Assembly: GCA_015067525.1 (NCBI GenBank)
Contig: SVMH01000001.1
Location: 16,959 to 80,958 of the forward strand
Source of the DNA: Oscillospiraceae bacterium
GTDB lineage: Bacteria > Bacillota > Clostridia > Oscillospirales > Oscillospiraceae
DNA: 64,000 bases
Direction of reading: 5' to 3'
A program made the translations under genes and the position numbers. Below are positions 5,873 through 42,073 of this stretch, piece by piece. How positions within the stretch are numbered: the stretch's first letter is position 1; the number at the start of each line of letters is the position of its first letter. Below the pieces are notes generated by a model. That model did not search any database and was not told where the DNA came from. It was given only the letters and a program-made list of their open reading frames with translations.

Positions 5873-5880
5873 AAAGCAGA

Positions 5881-5916
5881 AAAGTCCTTCGGAGACCGCC
5901 TCCGGAGGATTTTTTT
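5881..5916 (+). terminator. Terminator after glgP
   Basis: AAAGTCCTTCGGAG-accgc-CTCCGGAGGATTTTTTT. Confidence 0.7.
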
Positions 5917-5977
5917 GTATCTTGACAGGTGTGGTATAATGTTATCTGTCAAACTATGCAAAAGAATGAGGAATACT

Positions 5978-7144
5978 ATGACTGAATTTACACAGGGCGC
6001 GCCCTTCGATACCTTTGGCCTGTCGGAGGCTACGCTGCGCGCCGTTCGCAATAAGGGATATGAGATTTCCACCCCCGTGCAGGCCGGCTGCATCCCGCCC
6101 ATGATGGAGGGCAAGGACGTGATCGCCAAGGCGCCTACCGGCACCGGCAAGACCATGGCCTTCGGCATCCCCATCATTGAGCGCATCGACCCCGAGAGCG
6201 AGGCGGTGCAGGCGGTGATCCTGGCGCCCACCCGCGAGCTGGCCATGCAGATCACCGACGAGATGCGGGAAGTGGCCGTGTGCCACGAGGGCGTGCGTCT
6301 GGTGTGCCTGTATGGCGGCCAGCCCATCGGCAAGCAGATCAATGCCCTCAAGCGCAAGCCCCAGATCGTGGTGGCTACCCCCGGCCGCCTCAGCGACCAT
6401 ATGAAGCGCCGCACCGTCACCATGGGCAGCGTGAAGACGGTGGTGCTGGACGAGGCCGACCGCATGCTGGACATGGGATTCATCCACGATGTGACCCGTA
6501 TCCTGGATAAGATTCCCCACCGGGAGAATCTGGGCATGTTCAGCGCCACCATTTCCCGGGAAGTGATGGACATTTCCTGGGTCTATCAGCGCGACCCCGA
6601 GGAGATCATGGTGCAGGCCACCAAGGAGAATAAGCCCGACATCCTGCAGTACCGCATCGAGGTGGACGCCGAGAAGAAGGTGGAGACCATCGTGCGCATT
6701 CTGGAAGGTGAGCAGCTGGAGCGGGTGATCGTGTTCTGCAACACCAAGGGTTCCACCCAGCGCCTGACCAAGTTTCTGGAGCTGCGGGGCATCGACGTGG
6801 ACTGCATCCACGGCGACATTCCCCAGAAGAAGCGCGAGGCCGTCATGGCCAAGTTCCGCGAGGGTGGTCTCCGCGTTTTCGTGGCTACCGACGTGGCCAG
6901 CCGCGGCATCGACGTGGACGATGTGGACGCTGTGTTCAACTTCGAAGTGCCGGAGGAGAACGAGTACTACGTCCACCGCATCGGCCGCACGGGTCGTGCC
7001 AAGCGCCACGGCGTGGCCTATACGCTGCTGTCCGATTTTCCCTCCCGCATGCGATTGAACGATATCGAGCGCAACACCCGCAATCAGATCATTCCCGCCC
7101 AACTGACGGAGGATGGCCATGTGGTAGCGGTGGAGAAAAAGTGA
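5978..7144 (+). CDS. DEAD-box RNA helicase (core only, short C-terminus)
   Basis: Q motif, APTGTGKT, PTRELA, TPGRL, DEAD, SAT, HRIGRTGRA; extended -10 TGGTATAAT at 5932-5940. Confidence 0.95.
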   Translation: MTEFTQGAPFDTFGLSEATLRAVRNKGYEISTPVQAGCIPPMMEGKDVIAKAPTGTGKTMAFGIPIIERIDPESEAVQAVILAPTRELAMQITDEMREVAVCHEGVRLVCLYGGQPIGKQINALKRKPQIVVATPGRLSDHMKRRTVTMGSVKTVVLDEADRMLDMGFIHDVTRILDKIPHRENLGMFSATISREVMDISWVYQRDPEEIMVQATKENKPDILQYRIEVDAEKKVETIVRILEGEQLERVIVFCNTKGSTQRLTKFLELRGIDVDCIHGDIPQKKREAVMAKFREGGLRVFVATDVASRGIDVDDVDAVFNFEVPEENEYYVHRIGRTGRAKRHGVAYTLLSDFPSRMRLNDIERNTRNQIIPAQLTEDGHVVAVEKK

Positions 7145-25042: not shown

Positions 25043-26494
25043 TTAATAGAATTCCTTGATGCGGTGGAACCAGGTGCTTGCCGGGTCGCCCAGCTCCTTC
25101 AGGTACCGGGACATGATGTCCAGATACTTTTTCTTCACGTCGGCATAAGCCGGATCGTAGCATACATTTTTCAGCTGATAGGGATCCTTCTTCAGGTCGT
25201 ACAGCTCACCGCGCTCGCTCTCGTTGAAGGTGAGCTGATAGTCAAGGTCGCGCACCATGCGCTGCCGGTGGGTGTAGAAGTGGTTGTGATATTCACAGAA
25301 CACTTCCGTGCGGCCGTTGCTCTCCTGCTCGCCCATCATCAGGGGCAGCACGCTCTCGCCGTCCACGCTCTTGGGAGGCTTGACGCCGGCGATGTCCAGA
25401 ATGGTGGGCATCATCTCGTGGAGGTAGACGAAGCTGTCGTTATCCTTGGTGCCGGCACCCTTGACCACCATGGGGATGTGGTAGATCTCGTCAAAGGTGA
25501 AAGCGCCCTTCTCGATCAGCTTGTGGGCACCCAGACAGTCACCGTGGTCGGCAGAATAGATGATGATGGTGTCCTCGTACAGACCCTCGGCCTTCAGCTT
25601 ATCCACGATCATGCCCACCATGTCGTCGATCATGGTGCAGTGGCCGTAGTAGCGGGCGGCGATCTCCTGGAAGCCCTTCCAGCCGTAGTTGCCCAGACCC
25701 CACATCTTCTCGCTGAGGTAGTAGCCGTAAGGCTTATCCAGCAGGTCGTCGCAGTAGCTGGGGTGTTCGGGGATGTCGGCGGGATCGTACATGGAGTAGT
25801 AAGGCTCGGGCACGATGCTGGGGGAATGAGGACCCCAGAAGTTGGCCCAGATGAAGAAGGGCTTATCCTCCTCCTTGGCCTTGTCGATGAGGCGCTTAGT
25901 CTCGTGAGCCACGAAATACTCAATGGTGCTCTCCACGGGGCCTTCGTGCTTGCAGAACATCTCCTGGATCTGCAGGGCGGGGTTGTCGCCCAGGAAGCCG
26001 TGGGACACATCCACGCCCTCGTAGCCATGTTCCTTGAGATAGAGCTCGTAGTAGTTGGGCTCGTTGTCCGGCGGCTGGTTGAAGATCAGGCTGGGGAACA
26101 CTTGGCTGCCGGGGAAGCCATAGCCCATGAAGGGCTTGCCCTCATCAAAGCCGCACTCCTCGGGTGCCTTGTCCGGCGTGACGTGCCACTTGCCGGCGTA
26201 TCCGCAGTAATAGCCGGCCTCATGCATGCACTCACCCAGCAGGGGGATATCGTCGTGGATGCAGGTGAAATTGTCCACCACGCCGTGCTTGTGGGGATAC
26301 AGACCCGTCATCACGCTGGCGCGGGCCGGCGCACAGATGGCGGAGGGAGTATAGGCGTTGGTGAACTTCATGCCTTCGGCGGCCAGCTGGTCGATGTGGG
26401 GCGTCTTGCAGATGGGGTTCATGCCGTAAGCGCTGATGGTGTCCAGGCGCTGCTGATCGGCAAGGATCAGAAGCACATTTTTACGCTTTGCCAT
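25043..26494 (-). CDS. Cys-type formylglycine-dependent (S1) sulfatase, cytoplasmic
   Basis: NVLLILADQ, CAPARASVMTG (CxPxR), GKWH, GPH and SADHG; no signal peptide. Confidence 0.93.
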   Translation of the reverse strand: MAKRKNVLLILADQQRLDTISAYGMNPICKTPHIDQLAAEGMKFTNAYTPSAICAPARASVMTGLYPHKHGVVDNFTCIHDDIPLLGECMHEAGYYCGYAGKWHVTPDKAPEECGFDEGKPFMGYGFPGSQVFPSLIFNQPPDNEPNYYELYLKEHGYEGVDVSHGFLGDNPALQIQEMFCKHEGPVESTIEYFVAHETKRLIDKAKEEDKPFFIWANFWGPHSPSIVPEPYYSMYDPADIPEHPSYCDDLLDKPYGYYLSEKMWGLGNYGWKGFQEIAARYYGHCTMIDDMVGMIVDKLKAEGLYEDTIIIYSADHGDCLGAHKLIEKGAFTFDEIYHIPMVVKGAGTKDNDSFVYLHEMMPTILDIAGVKPPKSVDGESVLPLMMGEQESNGRTEVFCEYHNHFYTHRQRMVRDLDYQLTFNESERGELYDLKKDPYQLKNVCYDPAYADVKKKYLDIMSRYLKELGDPASTWFHRIKEFY

Positions 26495-26515
26495 GTCGTC
26501 CGTTCCTTTCCGGCC

Positions 26516-26644
26516 TTACAGAAAACGTTTCCGTAAAGCGCATAAAATCTCTTTTATTAAGATAGCATAAATTGTAGGATATGTCAATGGAAGATGGGAC
26601 GTAACAGAAATAGCCTTGCATTTTGTGGGAGAATCGGCTAAAAT
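26516..26644. promoter_or_regulatory. Divergent sigmaA promoters plus an operator-like palindrome
   Basis: Minus strand: TTGACA(26587)-17-TATCTT(26564). Plus strand: TTGCAT(26616)-17-TAAAAT(26639). Palindrome TTACAGAAAACGTTTCCGTAA at 26516-26536, in the sulfatase leader. Confidence 0.65.
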
Positions 26645-26693
26645 GATAACTGACGAATTATGCACAGCTGTGCGCCCAGAAGGGAGGGGTCTC

Positions 26694-27815
26694 ATGCCGC
26701 CTTTGAGCCTGCTGATCAAGCCGGCGTCCGGAAGCTGCAACATGCGCTGCCGGTACTGCTTCTATGTGGATGAAACAGAAAACCGCGCCGTGGCGCTGCG
26801 GGGCCGCATGAGTGAAGAGACGATGCACACCCTGGTGGACAAGACCCTGGCGTACGCCGATGGCGAGTGCACCTTCTCCTTTCAGGGAGGTGAACCGACG
26901 CTGGCGGGGCTGGGTTTCTTCCGTGCCATGTCGGACTATGTGGCCGCTCACCCCAACCCTAAGGGCATTCGGGTGCGTTGGTCCATCCAGACCAACGGCT
27001 ATGCCCTGGACGAGGACTGGTGCCGCTGGCTGCGGGACAATCGTGTTCTGGTGGGCATCTCGCTGGATGGTCCCAAGGAGGTCCACGACCGCTGCCGTGT
27101 GGACACCGAGGGGAAGGGTACGTTCCAAAAGGTGATGCAATCCATCCACCTGCTGGAAAAGTACAGCGTGGAGTTCAATATCCTCACGGTGGTCTCGGCG
27201 GCCAACGCCCGGCGGGCCGGTCAGGTATACAACTTCTTCAAAAAGCAGAGTTTCGGATATCAGCAGTATATCGAGTGTCTTGATCCTCTGGGTGAAGAGC
27301 CGGGAGGGCACGACTACTCCCTGACGCCGGAGCGGTATGAGGCCTTTTTGAAGACTATGTTTGACGAGTGGTATCGGGACGTCAGCGCCGGACACTACGT
27401 CTACAACCGCTACTTTGAAAATCTGCTGATGATCATGACGGGCCAGCAGCCGGAGAGCTGCAGTCTGCGGGGCGTATGTCAGGCCCAGTGGGTCATCGAG
27501 GCCGACGGCAGCGTGTACCCCTGCGACTTCTACGCGCTGGATGAGTGGCGTCTTGGCAATATCAACACCGATTCCTTTGCCGGAATGGAGCAAAAGCGGC
27601 GTGAGAGCGGCTTTATCGCCCAATCGGCCAGGGTGCCCGAGGCCTGCCGCAGCTGCCGCTGGGCGATGCTGTGCCGCAACGGCTGCCGCCGCAACCGCGC
27701 AGAGGACACGGGACAGAACCGTTTCTGCGCCGCCTATCAGGGCTTTCTGGAATACGCATACCCCCGCCTGCAGGAACTGGCACAGGCCATCCTGCGCCGT
27801 GCGGGAAGAAGATAA
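26694..27815 (+). CDS. Anaerobic sulfatase maturase (radical SAM/SPASM)
   Basis: KPASGSCNMRCRYCFY, FQGGEPTLAG, VYPCDF and CRSCRW...CRNGCRR; divergent from the sulfatase. Confidence 0.93.
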   Translation: MPPLSLLIKPASGSCNMRCRYCFYVDETENRAVALRGRMSEETMHTLVDKTLAYADGECTFSFQGGEPTLAGLGFFRAMSDYVAAHPNPKGIRVRWSIQTNGYALDEDWCRWLRDNRVLVGISLDGPKEVHDRCRVDTEGKGTFQKVMQSIHLLEKYSVEFNILTVVSAANARRAGQVYNFFKKQSFGYQQYIECLDPLGEEPGGHDYSLTPERYEAFLKTMFDEWYRDVSAGHYVYNRYFENLLMIMTGQQPESCSLRGVCQAQWVIEADGSVYPCDFYALDEWRLGNINTDSFAGMEQKRRESGFIAQSARVPEACRSCRWAMLCRNGCRRNRAEDTGQNRFCAAYQGFLEYAYPRLQELAQAILRRAGRR

Positions 27816-27852
27816 CAACAAAAATAATATATAATATAGGAGGTCAACAACA

Positions 27853-29229
27853 ATGGAACGATTTGGTATTTCTGTGGAGCTGAAGAATGTACCGGTGCTG
27901 GATCCCGGCTTCATGCCCATGCTGCCCTTTAACCGGGCATTCCTTAAGGGCGCTTCCAAGCCCGTCACCGTGGCGGTGGAGCGCGCCGACGGTCAGGTAG
28001 CCACCACTCACACCTTTATTCATGGCACCCCCGAGATGGCCGAGGCTGACCGCTACTACATCGACCGTCTGGTGAAGACGGCGCTGTGGATGAAGGGCGG
28101 CTACAAGATCTATGTGGATGACAAGGGCATCTACGATTACCTGTGCAGCGTGTACTGCAAGGGCGGCGAGCGTGAGTTCGACTGGGATTTCATGGCCAAT
28201 ATCTTTGAAAAGCCCTTTGAAGTGGTGCTGACCGACGCCGTGCCCGAGAGCCGTGACTGCCCCAAGCCCATGGGCGGTCATCTGGAAGGCTGCCGCATCG
28301 GCTTTGACGCCGGCGGCTCCGACCGCAAGGTGTCTGCCGTCATCGACGGCGAGACCGTGTTCTCCGAGGAAGTGGTGTGGCTGCCCAAGATCAATCCCGA
28401 TCCCGACTATCACTATGCCGGCATCGTGGAGGCCCTGAAGAAGGCCGCCTCCTACATGCCCCGCGTGGATGCCGTGGGTGTCAGCTCTGCCGGTATCTAC
28501 ATCAACGACCGCACCATGAGCGCCTCTTTGTTCCTGAAGGTTCCCAAGGAGCTGTATGAGGAGAAGGTGAAGAACATCTTCATCCGCGCCATCACCGACA
28601 CCTTCGGCGATGTGCCCTACGCCGTGGCCAACGACGGCGACGTGTCCGCTCTGGCCGGCACCATGAGCCTGAACGACAATAACGTGCTGGGCATCGCCAT
28701 GGGCACCAGCGAGGCCGTGGGCTACGTCAACGGCGACGGCTGCATCACCGGTTGGCTCAACGAGCTGGCTTTCGTCCCCGTGGACGCCAATCCCGACGCC
28801 ATGCGTGACGAGTGGTCCGGCGACATCGGCTGCGGCGTAAAGTACTTCTGCCAGGACGGCGTGAACAAGCTGGCACCCCGTGCCGGCATCGAACTGGATG
28901 AGAGCGCTTCCCCCGCCGAGAAGCTGAAGGTCACCCAGAAGCTGATGGAGCAGGATGATCCCCGCGCGGCTCAGGTCTATGAGTCCATCGGCTGCTATCT
29001 GGGCCACACCTTGGCTTACTACTTCGAGCATTACGGCTTCAAGTACGTGCTGCTGCTGGGCCGCGTCATGAGCGGTAAGGGCGGCGACCTGCTGCTTTCC
29101 ACCTGCCGCAAGGTGCTGGACGAGGAATATCCCGAGTACGCCGACAAGATCCAGCTGACCCTGCCGGACGAGAAGTTCCGCCGTGTGGGTCAGTCCATGG
29201 CTGCTGCCAGCCTGCCGGAGATGAAGTAA
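27853..29229 (+). CDS. ROK family protein (probable sugar kinase) with a long N-terminal extension
   Basis: IGFDAGGSDRK, VGVSSAG, ANDGD and GIAMGTSEAVG; directly upstream of nagA. Confidence 0.8.
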   Translation: MERFGISVELKNVPVLDPGFMPMLPFNRAFLKGASKPVTVAVERADGQVATTHTFIHGTPEMAEADRYYIDRLVKTALWMKGGYKIYVDDKGIYDYLCSVYCKGGEREFDWDFMANIFEKPFEVVLTDAVPESRDCPKPMGGHLEGCRIGFDAGGSDRKVSAVIDGETVFSEEVVWLPKINPDPDYHYAGIVEALKKAASYMPRVDAVGVSSAGIYINDRTMSASLFLKVPKELYEEKVKNIFIRAITDTFGDVPYAVANDGDVSALAGTMSLNDNNVLGIAMGTSEAVGYVNGDGCITGWLNELAFVPVDANPDAMRDEWSGDIGCGVKYFCQDGVNKLAPRAGIELDESASPAEKLKVTQKLMEQDDPRAAQVYESIGCYLGHTLAYYFEHYGFKYVLLLGRVMSGKGGDLLLSTCRKVLDEEYPEYADKIQLTLPDEKFRRVGQSMAAASLPEMK

Positions 29230-29245
29230 GACGGGAGGTACCCGC

Positions 29246-30373
29246 ATGAAAGTGATCAACGGCCGGGTGTTTGACCCGGAACAGGGCTTTGTGCAGCGCG
29301 ACCTCTGCACCGAGGGTAGTCTCATCGCCGCCGCCGGCGGCGGTGAAGTGATCGATGCCGCCGGCTGCTATGTGATCCCCGGTCTGGTGGATGTCCACTT
29401 CCACGGCGCCGTGGGCGAGGATTTCAGCGACGCTACCGCCGAGGGTCTGCAGCGCATTGCCGACTTTGAGCTGAGCCAGGGCGTGATGTACATCTGCCCG
29501 GCAGGCATGACGCTGCCCGAGGACCAGCTGCGCGCCATCTGCGAAAATACCGCCGCCCACCGCCGCGAAAATAAGGGCGGTGCGGAGGTGGTGGGTCTCC
29601 ATCTGGAGGGCCCCTTCCTGTCCATGGCCAAAAAGGGCGCCCAGAACGCAGACTTCCTCCACGCTCCCGATGCCGCTATGCTGGCACGTCTCCAGGAGGC
29701 CGCCGAGGGCGCTGTCCGTCTCGTGACGGTGGCTCCCGAGGAGCCGGGCGCCATGGCGTTTATCCGCAGTGCCAAGGAAATGGGTATCACCGTGTCTGTG
29801 GGCCACACCACGGCGGACTACGACACCGCCATGGAGGCCTTCCGCTGCGGCGCATCCCACGCCACCCATCTCTATAACGGTATGCCCAGCCTGCACCACC
29901 GTGCCCCCGCCGTTATCGGCGCCGCCTTCGACACCCCCGGTGTCCGGGCCGAGCTGATCTGCGACGGCGTGCATATCCATGGCGCTATGGTGCGTCTGGC
30001 CTTCCGCCTGTTCGGCAAAGAGCGCATGGTGCTCATCTCCGACTCCCTCCGTGCAGCCGGTATGCCCGACGGCACCTACCCCTTCGGCGGTCAGGAGATC
30101 GAGGTTCACGGCAACCGTGCCACCATCGTGGGCCATCCCGAGACGCTGGCCGGTTCTGTGACCAGCCTGATGGGCTGCCTGCGGCAGGCTGTGAAGTTTG
30201 ACATCCCCCTCCACGACGCCGTGCGCGCCTGCACGCTGAATCCGGCACAGGCCATCGGCATTGCCGACCGCTGCGGCACGCTGGATGAGGGCAAGGACGC
30301 CAGCTTCGTGGTGCTGGACGAGAAGGATCTCTCCGTCCGCGCCATGGTGTTCAAGGGCAAGCGTATTGCCTGA
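29246..30373 (+). CDS. nagA: N-acetylglucosamine-6-phosphate deacetylase
   Basis: PGLVDVHFHG, HLEGPF, THLYNGM and LAGS. Confidence 0.95.
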   Translation: MKVINGRVFDPEQGFVQRDLCTEGSLIAAAGGGEVIDAAGCYVIPGLVDVHFHGAVGEDFSDATAEGLQRIADFELSQGVMYICPAGMTLPEDQLRAICENTAAHRRENKGGAEVVGLHLEGPFLSMAKKGAQNADFLHAPDAAMLARLQEAAEGAVRLVTVAPEEPGAMAFIRSAKEMGITVSVGHTTADYDTAMEAFRCGASHATHLYNGMPSLHHRAPAVIGAAFDTPGVRAELICDGVHIHGAMVRLAFRLFGKERMVLISDSLRAAGMPDGTYPFGGQEIEVHGNRATIVGHPETLAGSVTSLMGCLRQAVKFDIPLHDAVRACTLNPAQAIGIADRCGTLDEGKDASFVVLDEKDLSVRAMVFKGKRIA

Positions 30374-30391
30374 GAAAATGGAATCATTACG

Positions 30392-30425
30392 AAAAAAGCC
30401 TGCCGCAGCTGCGGCAGGCTTTTTT
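30392..30425. terminator. Bidirectional terminator
   Basis: A6-GCCTGCCGCAG-CTGCGGCAGGC-T6. Confidence 0.85.
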
Positions 30426-30439
30426 GTTGTGGGGATTGG

Positions 30440-30990
30440 TTAGACAAATTGGGATTTGACGGTATTACAACAGCTTTATCTCATTGGCAATCATAGCCAC
30501 GGTTTTGGCTGTGGTATCAATTTTAATGGTATCGAGTGCTTGATACATCGGTATTCTTGCTATGCTTCGCTCAATTATATCTTCAGAACGGATACCTCTT
30601 TCTACATCCATTGCCAATCTTTCACACAGAGTCTTTTCATCCGCTACAAGCGAGACGCATTTCACCTCACAGTTCTGCGTATCCAGCTTCTCAAGTATGG
30701 AATTGATAATACTCTGCTCATGCATCACCCAACAAAAAATGATATTCTCGTATGCAGAACACTTCAGAAAATTATCGAGTAAATAACAAATATTATTTGT
30801 CACCATTGCTTTTGTTTCATCGGTTACTTGGAACGGACTTGCATCCCAGCACCAATCTCCGTCAAGAAATACACTATTCGGCAAATCCTGTTTGAGCTGT
30901 TGGCACACAGTTGTTTTTCCAACTCCCATAGTGCCACCAACCATATATAAAGTTTTCATCATTCGCACCTACAAATTCAAGTTTGTCTAA
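30440..30990 (-). mobile_element. Low-GC single-gene cassette bounded by 19-bp imperfect inverted repeats
   Basis: Left TTAGACAAATTGGGATTTG (30440-30458); right, reverse-complemented, TTAGACAAACTTGAATTTG (30972-30990); 16/19 identical. Interior about 35-42% GC in hand-counted lines versus about 60% in neighbouring genes. Confidence 0.7.
30465..30962 (-). CDS. P-loop nucleotide-kinase-like (AAA family) protein
   Basis: GGTMGVGKTT Walker A and FLDGDWCW; AT-rich codon usage. Confidence 0.88.
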   Translation of the reverse strand: MMKTLYMVGGTMGVGKTTVCQQLKQDLPNSVFLDGDWCWDASPFQVTDETKAMVTNNICYLLDNFLKCSAYENIIFCWVMHEQSIINSILEKLDTQNCEVKCVSLVADEKTLCERLAMDVERGIRSEDIIERSIARIPMYQALDTIKIDTTAKTVAMIANEIKLL

Positions 30991-31036
30991 GAGACCGTCT
31001 GCTGTCTTCACAGGTACGGTACGTTGCCTTATCGAC

Positions 31037-31065
31037 ATCTTACCACACCGCCGCCGGTTGTGCAA
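31037..31065 (-). promoter_or_regulatory. SigmaA promoter outside the cassette and reading into it
   Basis: TTGCAC-17-TAAGAT with an extended -10 TG. Confidence 0.65.
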
Positions 31066-31069
31066 CGGT

Positions 31070-31122
31070 TATCCCCCCGTCATTTGCGTTGCAAATGACA
31101 TCCCCCTTTAGGCAAGGGGGGT
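31070..31122. repeat. REP-like double-hairpin element
   Basis: GTCATTTGC-gtt-GCAAATGAC followed by CCCCCTT-taggc-AAGGGGG; similar architecture at 53516-53580. Confidence 0.55.
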
Positions 31123-31123
31123 G

Positions 31124-31160: not shown

Positions 31161-31334
31161 TTATTGCTTTCTTGCGGTGATGTACTCGTCACCGGGCCGC
31201 CAGTAGGGACAGGAATCGGTGTGGCTGGAGAGGAAGCGGATCATCTCGTCCTCGTCTAAGTCTATATCGCAGACATAGTCGTCGTACAACTCATCGTAGA
31301 CGAAAAAGTTGCAGCTTTCGCACTTACTGCTCAT
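31161..31334 (-). CDS. 57-aa Cys/acidic small protein (DUF6472-like), missing from the ORF track
   Basis: MSSKCESCNFFVYDELYDDYVCDIDLDEDEMIRFLSSHTDSCPYWRPGDEYITARKQ; ATGA overlap with the transporter stop codon; GAGGTG RBS. Confidence 0.8.
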   Translation of the reverse strand: MSSKCESCNFFVYDELYDDYVCDIDLDEDEMIRFLSSHTDSCPYWRPGDEYITARKQ

Positions 31335-34483: not shown

Positions 34484-37400
34484 TTACTCAGCGTAGCCTT
34501 CGCGCTCCTTGCGCTGCTTGAGCAGCAGCACGACCACGCCGGCCAGGGAGACCAGCATGGCACCGGTCAGCAGACCCACGGGGGTCGTGTCGCCGGTCTT
34601 GGGAGCGGGACGGTAGACGGTGGTACCCTCAGAGGTATCCTCGTCAGTGGTGCCGCCCTCAGCGTTGACCACAGCGGTGTTGAACAGCGTCTGGCCGATC
34701 TGCTCGGTGGTGGGTACGTACTCGTACTCGCCGGTCCAGATCTCGCCAACGGCCAGAGCGCCGATGGTCTCGGTCAGGCCCAGCATCTCGTCCACCAGAA
34801 CCACGTCCTTCAGATCCACCTCACCGTTGTTGGTGACAACGATGGTGTAGGTCAGAGGCTTGCCGGCGAAGACCTTGTCAGAGCCTGCGGTCTTCTCCAC
34901 ATCGAGGGAGCGCTGCAGGATGGTCAGCGTGCCGGGAACAAACTCCAGAACGTAGTTGGCGGCCTTGAAGCCCTCACCATCCGTCAGAGCCAGAGTGCCC
35001 TGCGTGATGGGATACTCGCCCTTGGCGGCACCGGCCTCGCGGACCAGCTCACCGGTGAAGGCGGGCGTCTCGGTAGCCACGGGGGTGTTGACCTGATAGG
35101 TCAGCTCGGGATCGGCATCGCCGGTAGCGATGGTGTGGCTGTCGGCGGTGACAACGATGGTGGCGGGAGTGATGACCACGGGAACGGTGGTGGTCAGAGC
35201 GTCGCCCTCATAGTTGTCGTTGGAAGCCTTGACATAGACGGTGTAGTTGCCCACATCCTGATACTGAGGCATCTCGGCGGTGTAGGTCACGCCGTCCACG
35301 CTGTAGGTGTAGGTCCACTCGTCGGTGGCAACTGCGCCGGTAACGGCCTGAGAGGTCACGCCGTTGTGCAGCTGGCCATCGTACACGCCGGTGTAGCCGG
35401 TGGCTTCCAGCTTGGCGTTGGTGTGCTTGTTGACAGTCAGCACGCCTTCCTTGACGGTGATGTCATAGTTGGCGGCCTTGGTGCCGTCCTTCAAGGTGTA
35501 GGTGAAGGTGTTGTCCACGCTGCCCACGTTGGTGATGGAAGCGAAGTTGCTGTAATCAGCGCCCTCGCCGGCCACGAAGCCGTCACCGGTGACGGCCACA
35601 GACTCGACCTTCAGAGCGGTGCCGTTATACATCTTGCTGCCGGAGCCGGAGGTCAGGACCACGGTGCGCTTGGTGATCTCCAGAGCGCCGTCGGTCACGT
35701 TGAAGGTGACACCCTCAAAGTTCTTGCTGGTATTGGCAAACTGGGAAGCAGCCAGACCCATGGGGTAGGTGCCCACATCGGTGCCGGCAGCAACGGCGGT
35801 GCCGGAGAAGGAGATGTTGGACTCAGCGTACAGAGTGCTGGAGATGTTGGTGACCTTGTAGCCTTCCACCTTCTGCTCAGCGCCATTGTACATCTTGGTG
35901 CCGGTGTTGCCCACGATGGTGACCACAACGCCGGTGAGAGGAGTGATGGTCAGAGCGCCGTCGGTCACCACGAAGGTGACATCAAAGTTGGCGTTCTTGT
36001 TGGTGAACTGCTCCTTGGCCAGACCCATGGGATAGGTATCCACATCGGTGCCCTTGGCAACAGCATTGCCGGAGAAGGTGAAGTCGGCTTCGGTGTAGAG
36101 CTTGTCGGAGATGGCCACGGTGTAGCCTTCCACCTTCTGCTCAGCGCCGTTGTAGACCTTGCTGTCCTTGTTGCCGGTGATGGTCACGGTGACAGCCAGA
36201 GGATCGATGACCAGAGCGCCATCTTCCACCACGAATTCCACGTTGGTGAAGTTCTTGTTGGTGTTGGCGAAGTCGGAACTCTTGACGGCCATGGGATAGT
36301 TGCCCACGTTGGTGCCCTTCACGGTGGCGTCGCCGTTGAAGGTGAAGTCAGCGGTGGTGTACAGCGCGTTGGAGATGGACACGACATCATAGCCGGTGAC
36401 GGTCTTCTCAGTGCTGTCGTAGGTGACCTTGTCGCTGTGCTCCTTGACGGTGACGGTGACCTTGTCGGTGATGGGAGTGATCTCCAGCTGGCCATCGTTC
36501 ACCACGAAGGTGACGGTGAAGTTGTCGTTCTTGTTGGTGAACTGAGAGGTGGCCAGATTCATGGGATACTTGCCCACGGTGGTACCGGCGGCAACGGCGG
36601 TGCCGTTGAAGGCGAAGTCAGCTTCGGTGTAGAGCTTGTCGGAGATGGCCACGGTGTAGCCTTCCACCTTCTGCTCAGCGCCGTTGTAGACCTTGCTGTC
36701 CTTGTTGCCGGTGATGGTCACGGTGACGGCCAGAGGAGTGATCTCCAGAGAGCCGTCGCTGACCACGAACTTCACGGACTTGAAGTTGGGGTTGGTGTTG
36801 GTGAACTGCTTCTCATTCAGACCCATGGGATAGGTACCCACGTTGGTGCCGGCGGCAACAGCGGTGCCGGAGAAGGAGAAGTCGGTTTCCTTATACAGGG
36901 GGTTGGAGATGGAGACGGTGTAGTCCTCCACCTTCTGCTCGCTGCCGTTGTAGACCTTGGAGGCCTTGTTACCGGTGATGGTGACGACCACTTCGTCCAC
37001 GGGGGTGATCTCCAGCTGGCCGTCGGTGACGGTGAAGGTAACGGTGAAGTTACCGTTCTTGTTGGAGAACTGATCCTTGGTCAGGCCCATGGGATACTTA
37101 CCCACGGCAGTGCCCTTGGCAACGGCCTCGCCGGAGAAGGCGATGTCGGCCTCGGTGTAGAGCTTGTCGGAGATGGAGACCTTGTAGCCTTCCACCTTCT
37201 GCTCGCTGCCGTTGTAGACCTTGACGTCCTTGTTACCGGTGATGGTCACGGTGACAGCCAGAGGAGTGATCTCCAGCTCGCCGTCAGTCACGTTGAAGGT
37301 GACCTTGGCGAAGTTGGGGTTGTTGTTGGTGAACTGGGAAGCAGCCAGACCCATGGGATACTTGTCCACATCGGTGCCGGCGGCAACAGCCTCACCGGAG

Positions 37401-40400
37401 AAGGAGAAGTCGTTCTTGGTGTACAGGGGGTTGGAGATCTCCACCTCATAACCGGTGACGGACTGCTCAGCGCCGTTATAGACCAGAGAATCCTTGTTAC
37501 CGGTGATGGTGACGATGACTTCGTCCACGGGGGTGATCTTCAGCTCACCGTCGGTGACTTCGAAGGTGACGGTGAAGTTCTCGTTGGTGTTGGAGAACTG
37601 ATCCTTGGTCAGGCCCATGGGATAGGTATCGGCCACGGTGCCCTTGGCAACGGCCTCGCCGGAGAAGGTGAAGTCGGCCTCGGTGTAGAGCTTGTCGGAG
37701 ATGGAGACCTTGTAGCCTTCCACCTTCTGCTCAGCGCCGTTGTAGACCTTGACGTCCTTGTTACCGGTGATGGTCACGGTGACGGGCAGGACCTTGATGC
37801 CCAGAGAACCGTCGTTGACCACGAAGGTGACATCCTGGAAGTTCTTGTTGGTGTTGGAGAACTGCTTCTCATTCAGACCCATGGGATACAGGCCTGCGTC
37901 AGTGCCCTTGGCAACAGCCTCGCCGGAGAAGGCGAAGTCGGCCTCGGTGTACAGGGTGTTGTTGATGGAGACCTCATAGCCCTCCACCTTCTGCTCAGCG
38001 CCGTTGTAGACCAGAGAATCCTTGTTGCCGGTGATGGTGACCACGATGCCCTCGAGAGGAGTGATCTCCAGCTCGCCGTCGTTTACCTCGAAGGTGACGG
38101 TGAAGTTCTTGCTGGTGTTGGAGAACTGCTCAGCCTTCAGGCCCATGGGATAGGTATCCACATCGGTGCCCTTGGCGATGGCCTCGCCGGAGAAGGTGAT
38201 GTTGGACTCGGCATACAGAGGATCGGAGATGGTGACCTCATAGCCTTCCACCTTCTGCTCAGTGCCGGTGTAGACCAGGGAATCCTTGTTGCCGGTGACG
38301 GTCACGTCGATGGCCAGAGGAGTGATCTCCAGAGAGCCGTCGGTCACATTGAAGGTGACGCCTTCGAAGTTGTCGTTGTTGTTGACGAACTGGGAAGCGG
38401 CCAGACCCATGGCGTAGGTGTCCACGTCGGTGCCGGCGGCAACGGCAGCGCCGTTGAAGGTGAAGTCAGCCTTGGTGTAGAGGGTGTTGCTGATGGAGAC
38501 CTCATAACCGGTGACGGACTGCTGGGCGCCGTTGTAGACCAGAGAATCCTTGTTACCGGTGATGGTGACCACCACGTTCTTGACGGGGGTGATCTCCAGC
38601 TGGCCGTCGGTGACGGTGAAGGTAACGGTGAAGTTATCGTTGGTGTTGGAGAACTGCTCCTCAGCCAGACCCATGGGATAGGTACCCACGTTGGTGCCCT
38701 TGGCGACATCGGTGCCGGAGAAGGAGAAGTCAGCTTCCTTGTACAGGCTGTTGCTGATCTCCACCTCATAACCGGAAACGGACTGCTCGGCGCCGTTGTA
38801 GACCTTGGAGTCGGTGTTGCCGGTGATGGTCACGTCGATGGCCAGAGGATCGATCTTCAAAGAGCCGTCGTTGACCACGAACTCCACATTGGTGAAGTTG
38901 GTGTTGGTGTTGGCAAACTGGGAAACGGCCAGACCCATGGGATAGGTACCCACGTTGGTGCCGGCGGCAACCTTGGTGCCGGAGAAGGAGAAGTCAGCCT
39001 CGGTGTACAGGGGGTTGGAGATGGCCACTTCATAACCGGAGACGGACTGCTCAGCGCCGTTGAAGGTCTTGGTGTCCTTGTTGCCGGTGATGGTGACGAC
39101 CACCTTGTCCACAGGGGTGATCTCCAGCTGACCGTCGTTTACCACGAAGGTGACGGTGAAGTTGGTGTTGTTGTTGGTGAACTGCTTCTCATTCAGGCCC
39201 ATGGGGTACTTGCCCACGGCAGTGCCCTTGGCGACAGCCTCGCCGGAGAAGGAGAAGTAGCTCTCCTTGTACAGATCATTGCTGATCTCGACCTCATAGC
39301 CGGAAACGGACTGCTCCTTGCCGTTGTAGACCTGAACGTCCTTGTTGCCGGTGATGGTCACGGTGATGGCCAGAGGATCGATGACCACTTCGCCATCCAC
39401 CACCACGAACTCCACGTTGGTGAAGTTGGTGTTCTTATTGGTGAAATCGGAGGCCTTCACATCCATGGGATAGTTGCCCACGTCGGTGCCGCTGACAGCA
39501 GCGGTGCCGGAGAAGGTGAAGTCGGTTTCCTTATACAGGGGGTTGGAGATGGAGACGGTGTAACCGTTGGCGCTCTTCACAGTGCCGTCATAGGTGTACT
39601 TGCCGCCGTTCTCCGTGATGGTCACGGTGACCTTGTCGGTGACGGGGGTGATCTGCAGAGAGCCGTCGGTCACGTTGAAGGTAACGGTGAAGTTGGCGTT
39701 GTTGTTGGCGAACTGGGAAGCGGCCAGACCCATGGGATAAGTACCCACGTTGGTGCCCTTGGCTACCTTGCTGCCGGAGAAGGAGAAGTCGGATTCCTTG
39801 TACAGGCTGTCGGAGATCTCGACCTCATAGCCTTCCACCTGCTGCTCGCTGCCGTTATAGACCTTGGTGGCGGTGTTGCCGGTGATGGTCACGGTGACGG
39901 GCAGGGGGGTGATGGTCAGCGTGCCGGGCACGGTGCTGACGGTGAACTGATAGGTCACGTCATTGCCGTCGGCATCCAGGATCTTGGCGGTGCCGGTGAA
40001 GCTGCTGGTGGTGGAGCCCACGTCAGTGCGGGAAGCACCGGCGGTCAGACCGTTGAGGGTGTAGCCGCTGGGCAGACCGGCCACGGTGTAGCCGCTGACG
40101 GACTGGGCGCTGCCGTTATATGCCAGCGTGGCGCTGTTGGCCGTCACGGTGACGGTGCCCTTTTCGGCATACTGTGCCACATAGGTCACGTCTTTGGTCA
40201 CGGTCTTGGCAATGGCGGGAGACCAGCCGGTGAAGTAGTAACCGCTATCGGCGGTCACAGCGGGAGCGGTGGGGGTGGCGGAATGGCGCTTGATGTTCTC
40301 GTGCACCACGTTGCCGTCGGCATCCTGACCGGCCAGAGCGCCGTGAGCGCCCTCGTTATAGGTCACGGTGTAGCGGGAGGTGACGCCCTTCAGGCCGGGA

Positions 40401-41863
40401 ACGGGGAAGTCATACTCGGTATCGCCCCAAGCCAGCTTGGTCTCGCCGTTGGCGGGATGCCAGGCGGTCTCGTCAAAGCCCGCAGCGTCGGCATCCAGAT
40501 AGACGGTATAGGACAGGGTGTAGGTGTAGGTGGTCACACCGGCGTTGGTGCTGCCGTCCACATCCTGCAGCTGCCAGGTCAGATTGGAGGCATCGCCGGT
40601 GACGCCCTCAGGCAAGTCGGCGGTGGGGGTGGTGACGCTGACGTTATTGCCCATGGGGTCGGTAACGGTGTTCAGCGCAATGCCCTGGGTGATGTCCTCG
40701 GTGATGGCGGCAAATGCGGCCATCAGACCGGCGGTGTTGTCAGCGTTGTAGGCGAAGGTGTGGCTCGTACCCTCATCGTCGGTATAGGCGGGAGTGGCCA
40801 CGCTGTTGCGCAGGAAGTTACCCACGGTGGGGCCGCCGCTGTAGGTGTTGTCGTTAGCCACACCGAAGCACACGGTGTACAGGCTTGCACCGGTGCCCTT
40901 CAGCGCGGTGGCAGATGCAGTGGCGTTGCTGTTGTTCTGGCTGCTGCCGTTGCTGCCGTTGCCGCCCACGTTTTCATAATAAGGGTCAGAGAAGATGCCG
41001 CCGCTGTGGTAATCACCACCGATGGCGGTAGTAGAGCTCTGAACGCTATTCATGCGGAAGGTGGGCTTACCGTCGGTCAGGACTACAGCATACTTGCTGG
41101 AGACAGAGGCGACGGCATCGGCGCCCAGCAGGTTCTTGCCCAGACGGATACCGGCGTCCAGATTGGTGCCGCCGGAGTCAGTGTCATTCCAACCGGTGGT
41201 GAAGCCGGGGGCGAGAGCGTTGATGGTGTTCACAGCAGAATCATAGCTGTTCTTCCCTGCGCCGCCGGCCACATTGACCCAGCCCAGCATGGTCTTGGCA
41301 GTGGTACCGTAACCCACGATGGCCAGATAGCGGTTGGCGCTGGCATCGGTACCGGCATAGCCGGCCACGGCGGGCGTATCACCGCTGGCGGGCGTGCCTG
41401 CCAGGAACTGCAGAGCGGCCTGCTTGGCGGCGTACAGACGGGTCTGGGTGGTGGTGATGTCGTTGTTATAGCGCGAGTAGTGTTTGCAGTCCTGCGCGTG
41501 CCGGTTATTATTGCCGCACTCGGCGCAGTACAACATGGAGTTGGACAGGTCGATGACCAGCACGGTGGCGGCTGCACTGGTGCGCAGCACGGTGGGGGTC
41601 TGCACCTGCACCTGCAGGTTGATGGTAAAGGTGTTGGGCTGGCCGGCCACGGGAGTGGCGACCTTGCTCAGGGTCAGGTCGGTGCCGGCATCATCTACGT
41701 CCTCGTAGGTGATGGAGCCGGTGCCGCCGGGGGTCCAGACGCCACCTTCATAGGTACCGTTGGTGACGGGGGATTCGTCACCCTCGGCTGCCCATGCCGT
41801 GGGTGTGGTGAGGCTGAAGAGCATCACCAGTGCCATGAAGAGGGACAAGATGCGTTTTCTCAA
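34484..41863 (-). CDS. Giant sortase-anchored surface protein/adhesin: signal peptide, vWA domain, 16 tandem ~88-aa repeats, MBG-like and DUF11-like domains
   Basis: TTG start after AAGGAGGAG; signal peptide ending AWA; MIDAS-type DLSNSM...GGTN...LTDG; C-terminal APKTGD, TM segment and basic tail. Confidence 0.9.
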   Translation of the reverse strand: MRKRILSLFMALVMLFSLTTPTAWAAEGDESPVTNGTYEGGVWTPGGTGSITYEDVDDAGTDLTLSKVATPVAGQPNTFTINLQVQVQTPTVLRTSAAATVLVIDLSNSMLYCAECGNNNRHAQDCKHYSRYNNDITTTQTRLYAAKQAALQFLAGTPASGDTPAVAGYAGTDASANRYLAIVGYGTTAKTMLGWVNVAGGAGKNSYDSAVNTINALAPGFTTGWNDTDSGGTNLDAGIRLGKNLLGADAVASVSSKYAVVLTDGKPTFRMNSVQSSTTAIGGDYHSGGIFSDPYYENVGGNGSNGSSQNNSNATASATALKGTGASLYTVCFGVANDNTYSGGPTVGNFLRNSVATPAYTDDEGTSHTFAYNADNTAGLMAAFAAITEDITQGIALNTVTDPMGNNVSVTTPTADLPEGVTGDASNLTWQLQDVDGSTNAGVTTYTYTLSYTVYLDADAAGFDETAWHPANGETKLAWGDTEYDFPVPGLKGVTSRYTVTYNEGAHGALAGQDADGNVVHENIKRHSATPTAPAVTADSGYYFTGWSPAIAKTVTKDVTYVAQYAEKGTVTVTANSATLAYNGSAQSVSGYTVAGLPSGYTLNGLTAGASRTDVGSTTSSFTGTAKILDADGNDVTYQFTVSTVPGTLTITPLPVTVTITGNTATKVYNGSEQQVEGYEVEISDSLYKESDFSFSGSKVAKGTNVGTYPMGLAASQFANNNANFTVTFNVTDGSLQITPVTDKVTVTITENGGKYTYDGTVKSANGYTVSISNPLYKETDFTFSGTAAVSGTDVGNYPMDVKASDFTNKNTNFTNVEFVVVDGEVVIDPLAITVTITGNKDVQVYNGKEQSVSGYEVEISNDLYKESYFSFSGEAVAKGTAVGKYPMGLNEKQFTNNNTNFTVTFVVNDGQLEITPVDKVVVTITGNKDTKTFNGAEQSVSGYEVAISNPLYTEADFSFSGTKVAAGTNVGTYPMGLAVSQFANTNTNFTNVEFVVNDGSLKIDPLAIDVTITGNTDSKVYNGAEQSVSGYEVEISNSLYKEADFSFSGTDVAKGTNVGTYPMGLAEEQFSNTNDNFTVTFTVTDGQLEITPVKNVVVTITGNKDSLVYNGAQQSVTGYEVSISNTLYTKADFTFNGAAVAAGTDVDTYAMGLAASQFVNNNDNFEGVTFNVTDGSLEITPLAIDVTVTGNKDSLVYTGTEQKVEGYEVTISDPLYAESNITFSGEAIAKGTDVDTYPMGLKAEQFSNTSKNFTVTFEVNDGELEITPLEGIVVTITGNKDSLVYNGAEQKVEGYEVSINNTLYTEADFAFSGEAVAKGTDAGLYPMGLNEKQFSNTNKNFQDVTFVVNDGSLGIKVLPVTVTITGNKDVKVYNGAEQKVEGYKVSISDKLYTEADFTFSGEAVAKGTVADTYPMGLTKDQFSNTNENFTVTFEVTDGELKITPVDEVIVTITGNKDSLVYNGAEQSVTGYEVEISNPLYTKNDFSFSGEAVAAGTDVDKYPMGLAASQFTNNNPNFAKVTFNVTDGELEITPLAVTVTITGNKDVKVYNGSEQKVEGYKVSISDKLYTEADIAFSGEAVAKGTAVGKYPMGLTKDQFSNKNGNFTVTFTVTDGQLEITPVDEVVVTITGNKASKVYNGSEQKVEDYTVSISNPLYKETDFSFSGTAVAAGTNVGTYPMGLNEKQFTNTNPNFKSVKFVVSDGSLEITPLAVTVTITGNKDSKVYNGAEQKVEGYTVAISDKLYTEADFAFNGTAVAAGTTVGKYPMNLATSQFTNKNDNFTVTFVVNDGQLEITPITDKVTVTVKEHSDKVTYDSTEKTVTGYDVVSISNALYTTADFTFNGDATVKGTNVGNYPMAVKSSDFANTNKNFTNVEFVVEDGALVIDPLAVTVTITGNKDSKVYNGAEQKVEGYTVAISDKLYTEADFTFSGNAVAKGTDVDTYPMGLAKEQFTNKNANFDVTFVVTDGALTITPLTGVVVTIVGNTGTKMYNGAEQKVEGYKVTNISSTLYAESNISFSGTAVAAGTDVGTYPMGLAASQFANTSKNFEGVTFNVTDGALEITKRTVVLTSGSGSKMYNGTALKVESVAVTGDGFVAGEGADYSNFASITNVGSVDNTFTYTLKDGTKAANYDITVKEGVLTVNKHTNAKLEATGYTGVYDGQLHNGVTSQAVTGAVATDEWTYTYSVDGVTYTAEMPQYQDVGNYTVYVKASNDNYEGDALTTTVPVVITPATIVVTADSHTIATGDADPELTYQVNTPVATETPAFTGELVREAGAAKGEYPITQGTLALTDGEGFKAANYVLEFVPGTLTILQRSLDVEKTAGSDKVFAGKPLTYTIVVTNNGEVDLKDVVLVDEMLGLTETIGALAVGEIWTGEYEYVPTTEQIGQTLFNTAVVNAEGGTTDEDTSEGTTVYRPAPKTGDTTPVGLLTGAMLVSLAGVVVLLLKQRKEREGYAE
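35669..39904 (-). repeat. 16 intragenic tandem repeats, alternating 87 and 89-91 aa
   Basis: Consensus VTITGNKDxKVYNGxEQxVxGYxVxISxxLYxExDFxFSGxAVAxGTxVxxYPMGLxxxQFxNxNxNFxVTFxVxDGxLxITP, counted by hand. Confidence 0.92.
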
Positions 41864-42073
41864 TGGTATCTCCTCCTTAGTTGAGAATGTCGCCCGGATC
41901 GGGAAAGAGACTGCCGGCGCGTGGCCGCCGGCCGCCCTCTGCCTCACCGGAGCGATGAGCAATTGTCAGGCAGGAACAAATGCTCCAAAACCCATATTTG
42001 CAATGCGCAATTGCCCAAATCCGGCAGGAGGCAATTTTTGCATTATATAAATATGGATATACCTAATGACAGC

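Follow-up and report, generated by a model that had tools for sequence, protein, structure and literature searches.

The P-loop kinase gene at 30465-30962 of the window (the whole 64,000-nucleotide stretch of DNA that was analysed) is one member of a widespread mobile cassette system, a conclusion that is well supported. Homology among its copies ends sharply, the copies occur in many hosts, and cassettes stand in arrays. Cargo is exchanged at the boundary between a conserved AAA and a spacer, and either of two spacer types is found at gene-gene junctions. In the best explanation, which carries a probability of about 0.5, the kinase segment is a non-autonomous cassette of a pool shared by gut Bacillota and is moved in trans by a tyrosine recombinase, most likely a TvrR-clade enzyme from an hsdS-shuffling locus. 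Movement by some tyrosine recombinase is very probable, while the assignment of that enzyme to the TvrR clade is tentative and falls a little short of even odds.

The cassette is a single gene between two imperfect inverted repeats, here called the upstream (U) and downstream (D) sites (Table 1). Its arms at 30440-30463 and 30967-30990 span 24 nt with 79% complementarity, and the recomputed alignment bears out the initial annotation in that the paired 19-mers are 16/19 identical and each is built as arm, spacer, and arm. Both repeats have the same architecture: an arm ending in AAA, a 6-bp spacer, and TTTG. The sequence also confirms a ribosome-binding site that abuts the U site and a stop codon 6 bp from the D site, which is the lower repeat. 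The kinase open reading frame on the minus strand covers 30465-30968; its start is likely the ATG at 30962 or 30959, because the GTG at 30968 overlaps the ribosome-binding site AGGTG at 30970-30966. The encoded protein matches Pfam AAA_18 (E=2.7e-16) and PDB 2bdt (BH3686, E=1.6e-7), and it matches a Gar/GrdA-family model at E=1e-8, yet far under the cut-off of that model. GC content is 0.392 across 30440-30990, compared with 0.657 in nagA and 0.598 genome-wide, and the description of a low-GC P-loop kinase gene filling the repeat interval holds. Throughout, L-numbers denote loci and G-numbers denote genomes; G000 is the window's own genome and is 85% complete.

Table 1. Features of the kinase cassette and its immediate surroundings, in positions of the window.
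Feature	Position	Strand	Remarks
Downstream (D) site	30439..30458	+	Outer arm 30439-30448, spacer TTGGGA 30449-30454, inner TTTG 30455-30458; matrix score 24.4
Upstream (U) site	30972..30991	-	Outer arm 30991-30982, spacer CTTGAA 30981-30976, inner TTTG 30975-30972; matrix score 23.5
Cargo gene, P-loop small-molecule kinase (AAA_18), 164-165 aa, GC 0.39	30465..30962	-	
Ribosome-binding site AGGTG	30966..30970	-	Directly after inner TTTG of the U site; kept in close copies
Candidate extended -10 promoter reading into the cassette, weak	31037..31065	-	Sequence only
Perfect A/T-tailed hairpin beyond the cassette end, likely a host terminator acting in both directions	30392..30425	.	
Host flank: amidohydrolase, nagA-like (name from the initial annotation)	29246..30373	+	Pfam Amidohydro_1
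Host flank: DUF6472 gene	31161..31334	-	Pfam

The host sequence around the cassette agrees in part with earlier proposals. The bidirectional terminator placed beyond the D site is a perfect palindrome, although its bidirectional role is only likely; a similar copy of this hairpin lies at G000:C65:18260. The sigmaA promoter placed upstream is a weak match when aligned by hand (-35 3/6, -10 4/6 plus TG), was not reported by a promoter scan, and ends about 46 bp from the site, where 2-7 bp is usual at other loci. The site motif, which translates as DKLEF in the open reading frame at 30874-31065, does recur beside short accessory genes. This reading frame is probably spurious, since it runs across the kinase gene in a different phase. 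Next to it, a segment of about 52 bp at 31071-31123 has similar copies in G000 (C65, C32, and C67) and in G020; one metagenome run diverges left of 31071, and the segment may be a small repeat. Elsewhere in the window, sulfatase-like, radical SAM/SPASM, ROK-family, and amidohydrolase genes at 25043-30373 form a likely sulfated amino-sugar utilisation cluster, and the minus strand at 34484-41962 encodes a 2492-aa surface protein with a long repeat region and, judged by eye, an LPXTG-like C-terminal anchor.

Relatives of the kinase were collected by scanning species genomes, and the best 80 of at least 573 coding stretches were kept as loci. Hosts among these best 80 of at least 573 include Catenibacterium, Mollicutes, Acholeplasmatales, other Bacilli, Lachnospiraceae, Oscillospiraceae, and Spirochaetia; single short contigs from distant phyla may be misbinned. 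The kinase gene shares 90-98% DNA identity with copies in Catenibacterium, Mollicutes, and other gut hosts, reaching 98.0% in Catenibacterium and 97.4% in a Mollicutes locus with a GC content of 0.28. Close copies, defined as the 44 listed loci with at least 86% amino acid identity, carry the U site in 31/33, the D site in 38/39, and both in 25/28 cases with readable flanks, as scored by a matrix that was trained on kinase flanks at no less than 76% amino acid identity and so includes the flanks of close copies. Distant copies (12 listed loci below 76% amino acid identity) carry the U site in 1/12 and the D site in 0/12. The outer flanks of close copies fall into 26 clusters of 33 upstream and 34 of 38 downstream. 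Along the cassette, identity is near complete from gene to spacer, partial over the outer arm of about 12 bp, and at background beyond it. The BLASTN-type comparison proposed in the initial annotation asked if identity ends at the repeats: close copies drop to background outside the sites, which supports a single-gene cassette that lacks its own promoter and, across unrelated hosts, is homologous only as far as the sites.

Metagenomic contigs show the same boundaries. In four faecal metagenomes, summed contig depth, which is not copy number, rises from below about 40 in adjacent bins to thousands within 30414-31005; runs dating from 2018 may be one campaign. In four further faecal metagenome runs, loose contig ends at 30437-30440 and 30977-30990 lead into unrelated DNA. 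A strain that differs by a few percent carries the cassette at the same place (run X8), and the contigs of 8 metagenome runs contain no circle junction or empty allele. In a search for empty alleles at the nagA-to-small-ORF interval, both flanks appeared together in 0/40 relatives, and five genus searches recovered no base-exact empty site. In Faecousia G359, about 1 kb is absent at the slot of L077, where the sequences are only about 80% identical and other repeats are involved. In Scatosoma, the host gene that precedes the cassette has no cassette behind it in 9/9 loci examined, but its neighbours in these loci are different.

Plasmid and virus collections were also searched. PLSDB, which is probably poor in gut-anaerobe plasmids, was searched with the cassette DNA, the linker region, and an aadE-like cassette, none of which gave a match, and a protein-level search of it returned one distant Devosia protein. 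INPHARED has no match to the cassette. IMG/VR yielded 11 kinase loci, and site-pattern searches there gave 0, 2, and 10 loci. Prophage-like IMG/VR contigs (L308, L309, and L316-L318) carry the kinase cassette and both of its sites beside serine recombinase genes and are a possible vehicle between cells. The serine recombinases beside the kinase in L308 and L309 were considered as the mover and are treated as coincidental because they are absent from every other locus family.

The sites belong to a family that extends well past the kinase, to numerous other small genes of drug or stress type in unrelated gut bacteria. The matrix trained on kinase-flanking sites finds 176 sites in the 80 loci (best 80 of at least 573) compared with 9.3 in shuffles, and sites beside other genes were outside the training set. 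Sites have a polarity: a start codon is found no more than 60 bp away from 66/82 forward sites, and a stop codon no more than 60 bp away from 77/94 reverse sites. Co-oriented gene arrays with a site at each junction occur in L050, L052, L036, L056, and others. Among hand-picked neighbouring open reading frames, 40/47 could be assigned a Pfam family, including GNAT acetyltransferases, glyoxalases, GrpB, nucleotidyltransferases, cyclases, hydrolases, HTH proteins, a beta-lactamase-family gene, and a streptomycin adenylyltransferase; these cargo labels are family names, and the functions are predicted only. G000 itself contains another two cassette-like sites, on C45 and C49, close to contig ends.

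Junctions within arrays are of two kinds, with either one site between two genes or a D and a U site 21 bp apart (15 cases). Longer D-to-U intervals often contain a hairpin followed by an extended -10 motif. Such a motif lies within 40 bp of 27/65 U sites, compared with a shuffle mean of 2 (maximum 7) and with 0/76 D sites, and it mostly ends 2-7 bp before the site. In Catenibacterium and at one Scatosoma locus, it is a host stop codon rather than a promoter that precedes the site. Several loci have additional features. In L077, a 121-bp tandem structured repeat (5745-5990) directly precedes the U site, and a 170-bp palindromic element with at least 6 copies in genome G335 follows the cassette (6570-6740). 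L028:4679-4993 and L029:5774-5965 contain the same truncated integrase remnant and promoter upstream of the kinase cassette in two different hosts. A more distant kinase subgroup (L068 and L072-L075) has another conserved tail (GGAAACAGAAACTTTCAG) after the gene; this tail, which is present in L235 too, is possibly a second site type.

The position of exchange can be read from six Catenibacterium genomes, in which the slot after one conserved host gene holds differing DNA. Three unrelated cargos, those of G041, G046, and G047, share their starting position, which is immediately behind the host AAA and at the spacer; the other three genomes have a DUF2992 gene in that slot. Different cargo at one host slot, which the initial annotation proposed to look for, is found at the Catenibacterium slot. 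There the outer arm is the end of the host gene, and the outer arm is thus not a fixed cassette end. At gene-gene junctions, the inner arm of the kinase is followed by either spacer type and then by the ribosome-binding site of the next gene (L050 and L056 versus L052, L090, and L092). The shared cargo start and the interchangeable spacers would fit a staggered exchange at both edges of a mismatch-tolerant spacer.

No recombinase was found in the window or next to arrays by Pfam and motif searches, in agreement with the earlier statement that the window encodes no moving enzyme. The cassette sites closely match recombination-type sites in hsdS, a link that the initial annotation did not foresee. 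A strong match to the site matrix in G000 falls inside a type I hsdS gene, and clostridial hsdS genes of this type have one site mid-gene and one near the tail. In the middle site, AAA is kept in 20/21, TTT in 21/21, and GAG in 19/21 unique sequences, about half of which were chosen by DNA pattern. An arms-only matrix (28 hsdS sites, 12 recombinase-fetched loci) gives scores of 10 or more at 39% of 56 U and 24% of 63 D kinase flanks, against 0.2% of 1229 random windows. Run on the window, an hsdS-only matrix places the cassette's own two sites outside the top 8. The type I restriction-modification locus L109 (G000:C75:76879-84059) has a single hsdS with middle and tail sites and neither a recombinase nor a spare module; it could be an excised or collapsed form of a tvr-like locus.

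A 329-aa tyrosine recombinase is encoded next to partial copies of hsdS in G297 and G111, and these copies begin at the boundary of AAA and spacer, as cassettes do. The recombinase gene of L196 and L218 stops 6 bp short of a site that shares 16 identical bases with the D site of the window, and it occupies the tail-to-middle interval, where cargo genes sit. The recombinase has plasmid relatives with 59-61% identity, which appear in Table S5 of PMC7672463 as members of clade 2, known as the TvrR clade. TvrR excises and reintegrates circles at short repeats of two types with a common core of about 11 bp (PMC6265443). L233 (G044:C12:128218-129207) has a TvrR-clade recombinase without hsdS beside it, located after an orphan gene that ends in a D site; GNAT and NUDIX genes together with additional sites lie 5-8 kb downstream. 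In L235 (G325:C31:155-6100), a TvrR-clade recombinase gene precedes a Fic/Doc pair and then several GNAT and HTH genes, which have no scored sites.

The distribution of TvrR-like enzymes is sparse. They were found in only 5/50 carrier genomes and in 13/251 genomes of the class, and they give no co-occurrence signal with the site: a loose class-wide site pattern matches in 7/13 enzyme genomes and in 123/251 overall, the latter being no prevalence figure because many loose matches have A-rich spacers that resemble ordinary coding sequence. Among 80 metagenome loci of the TvrR-like enzyme, HsdS is present in 72, a site scoring at least 14 in only 17, and a cargo array in 0. A D-type site is present in only 5/98 unique regions downstream of the enzyme, one of them doubtful, and most members of the enzyme family therefore seem to use other sites. 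Shuffling loci probably assemble poorly and come and go, which would soften the poor co-occurrence without removing it. The 85%-complete G000 has three tyrosine recombinases, none of the TvrR clade, and no serine resolvase was found there; it also has one weak Y1 transposase match. A 287-aa tyrosine recombinase at G000:C55:16256-17119 (L107:4257-5120) has no sites beside it, and its family occurs in 3/10 carrier genomes at 45-53% identity.

The host's own XerC/XerD-like recombinases could instead move the cassettes, as with the Acinetobacter pdif modules that are reportedly treated by Blackwell and Hall 2017. Each gene is flanked by inversely oriented two-arm sites with a 6-bp spacer, and host enzymes would account for the lack of an enzyme in cis. 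When an enzyme co-occurring with the motif was sought, as the initial annotation had advised, TvrR-like genes gave no signal, and XerC/XerD-like proteins were the only tyrosine recombinases to recur in all 10 carrier genomes examined (30/37 matches came with loci), so a pdif-like route keeps some probability. It is nevertheless quite unlikely: the site matrices lack an arm of the TTATGT type, which is the XerD consensus, the cassettes were not found on PLSDB plasmids, a search for host dif returned noise, and the match to hsdS sites is left unexplained. A different tyrosine recombinase on transient conjugative elements, with the hsdS resemblance stemming from shared ancestry of XerA-like binding arms, is unlikely as well. 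The poor co-occurrence with TvrR-like genes speaks for it, as do the integrase remnants just upstream of the site in L028 and L029, the Mob genes that neighbour sites in L100 and L325, and the spacers, which recall the mismatch-tolerant coupling sequences of Tn916-type elements. However, a Pfam scan of 65/120 representative large open reading frames near sites detected no intact tyrosine recombinase, and a motif scan near sites in the 80 loci (best 80 of at least 573) detected none.

Two further alternatives do without a site-specific recombinase. The initial annotation considered an IS630/Tc1-mariner-type element, and in that reading the repeats would be the terminal inverted repeats of a MITE, or of a minimal insertion cassette, with a DDE transposase (IS630/Tc1 or copy-out) as the mover and the 21-bp D-U linker as a junction of abutted ends. 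Inverted repeat orientation, the conservation of this linker over 15 occurrences, and outer arms that often resemble the linker in unrelated hosts are all consistent with it, but the reading is very unlikely and largely refuted. The TA noted at both ends of the window cassette is not conserved, being present at both ends in 0/33 other loci, and target duplication is absent (longest shared direct repeat 3.42, versus 3.45 in controls). Moreover, the outer arm is host DNA at the Catenibacterium slot, single-site gene-gene junctions exist, and the 85%-complete G000 contains no DDE_3 match. Three folds of the sites show no significant attC-like hairpin (z -1.44, 0.12, and -1.17), and no Rfam family reaches its gathering score there. 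As the cassettes lack a conserved TA and target duplication, form no attC hairpin, and have no integrase beside them, both the MITE reading and a strict integron reading fail, while site-specific recombinase logic with non-attC sites, the other option of the initial annotation, is supported. Short-homology or RNA-templated insertion at transcription starts, with the sites as by-products, is highly improbable. It draws on the enrichment of extended -10 motifs at U sites, which selection for expression explains equally well; the open reading frames of the 80 loci (best 80 of at least 573) contain no reverse-transcriptase motif, and the palindromic arms and the hsdS match point to a recombinase.

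The cassettes work like an integron cassette pool and are built like a pdif module, and they lack the tested defining features of integrons and MITEs. As in integrons, promoterless single genes with their own ribosome-binding sites form co-oriented arrays with one site per junction, and the cargo includes GNAT, glyoxalase, nucleotidyltransferase, and resistance-type families. In contrast to integrons, the sites are of a double-strand type of about 20 bp without an attC-like hairpin, a lone gene has a site on both sides, and no intI lies beside arrays. Instead of a single platform there are scattered chromosomal positions. The dedicated Pc/attI slot envisaged by the initial annotation is not supported: promoter motifs are enriched before U sites, but at many unrelated loci, and cassettes are scattered over numerous unconnected intergenic positions, downstream of promoters or immediately behind host stop codons. 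MITEs of the IS630/Tc1-mariner type and IS-derived minimal insertion cassettes are short non-autonomous units with inverted ends. The kinase cassette is also such a unit, but a conserved TA and target duplication are absent and its ends are not fixed at the outer arm.

Acinetobacter pdif modules (PMC9771954) likewise consist of genes between inversely oriented two-arm sites with a 6-bp spacer, and they alternate between module types, the counterparts here being gene modules and linker, terminator, or promoter modules. By comparison with pdif modules, the cassettes have other arm sequences, are chromosomal rather than plasmid-borne, occur in other phyla, and include both site orientations in series. 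The pneumococcal tvr/TvrR system and the clade-2 hsdS invertases share with the cassettes two short site classes with a common core and the logic of excision and reintegration (PMC6265443, PMC4263131, PMC7672463). The comparison of arms was made with the sites of clostridial tvr-like hsdS genes, which match those of the cassettes. Unlike in tvr, the cargo consists of whole accessory genes and not of hsdS target-recognition domains, and the system spreads across taxa and lacks an in-locus recombinase, with L233 as one loose exception. No prior description of the cassette system was found in the literature searched, which mostly excluded subscription journals.

For a non-autonomous cassette moved in trans by a tyrosine recombinase, a plausible pathway can be outlined. 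Strand exchange would take place at both edges of the 6-bp (possibly 8-bp) spacer and tolerate central mismatches. A circular intermediate would join the two inner arms and could insert into existing sites, generating arrays, or into site-like host sequence. The gene would be retained where an upstream promoter or operon transcribes the cassette, and cassettes may pass between cells as passengers on conjugative or prophage DNA.

Gram-positive gut bacteria readily exchange small accessory genes by mostly unexplained routes, and integrons are considered rare in these organisms. The cassettes may represent a counterpart of the integron without a platform, in which thousands of promoterless genes, resistance-type enzymes included, carry the sites of a phase-variable restriction locus. 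A TvrR-clade recombinase of an epigenetic switch would then double as a community-wide capture and shuffling enzyme that drops cargo behind host promoters; this reading is tentative and somewhat less probable than not. The system may have been overlooked because genome assemblies often break into contigs at its sites. With a 20-bp site as their label, such genes can be catalogued directly as a mobile pool, which includes, by family name, a streptomycin adenylyltransferase, nucleotidyltransferases, acetyltransferases, and a beta-lactamase-family gene. If the enzyme belongs to the TvrR clade, restriction phase variation would be linked to gene capture, and the sites would provide a short, mismatch-tolerant integration system for anaerobes.
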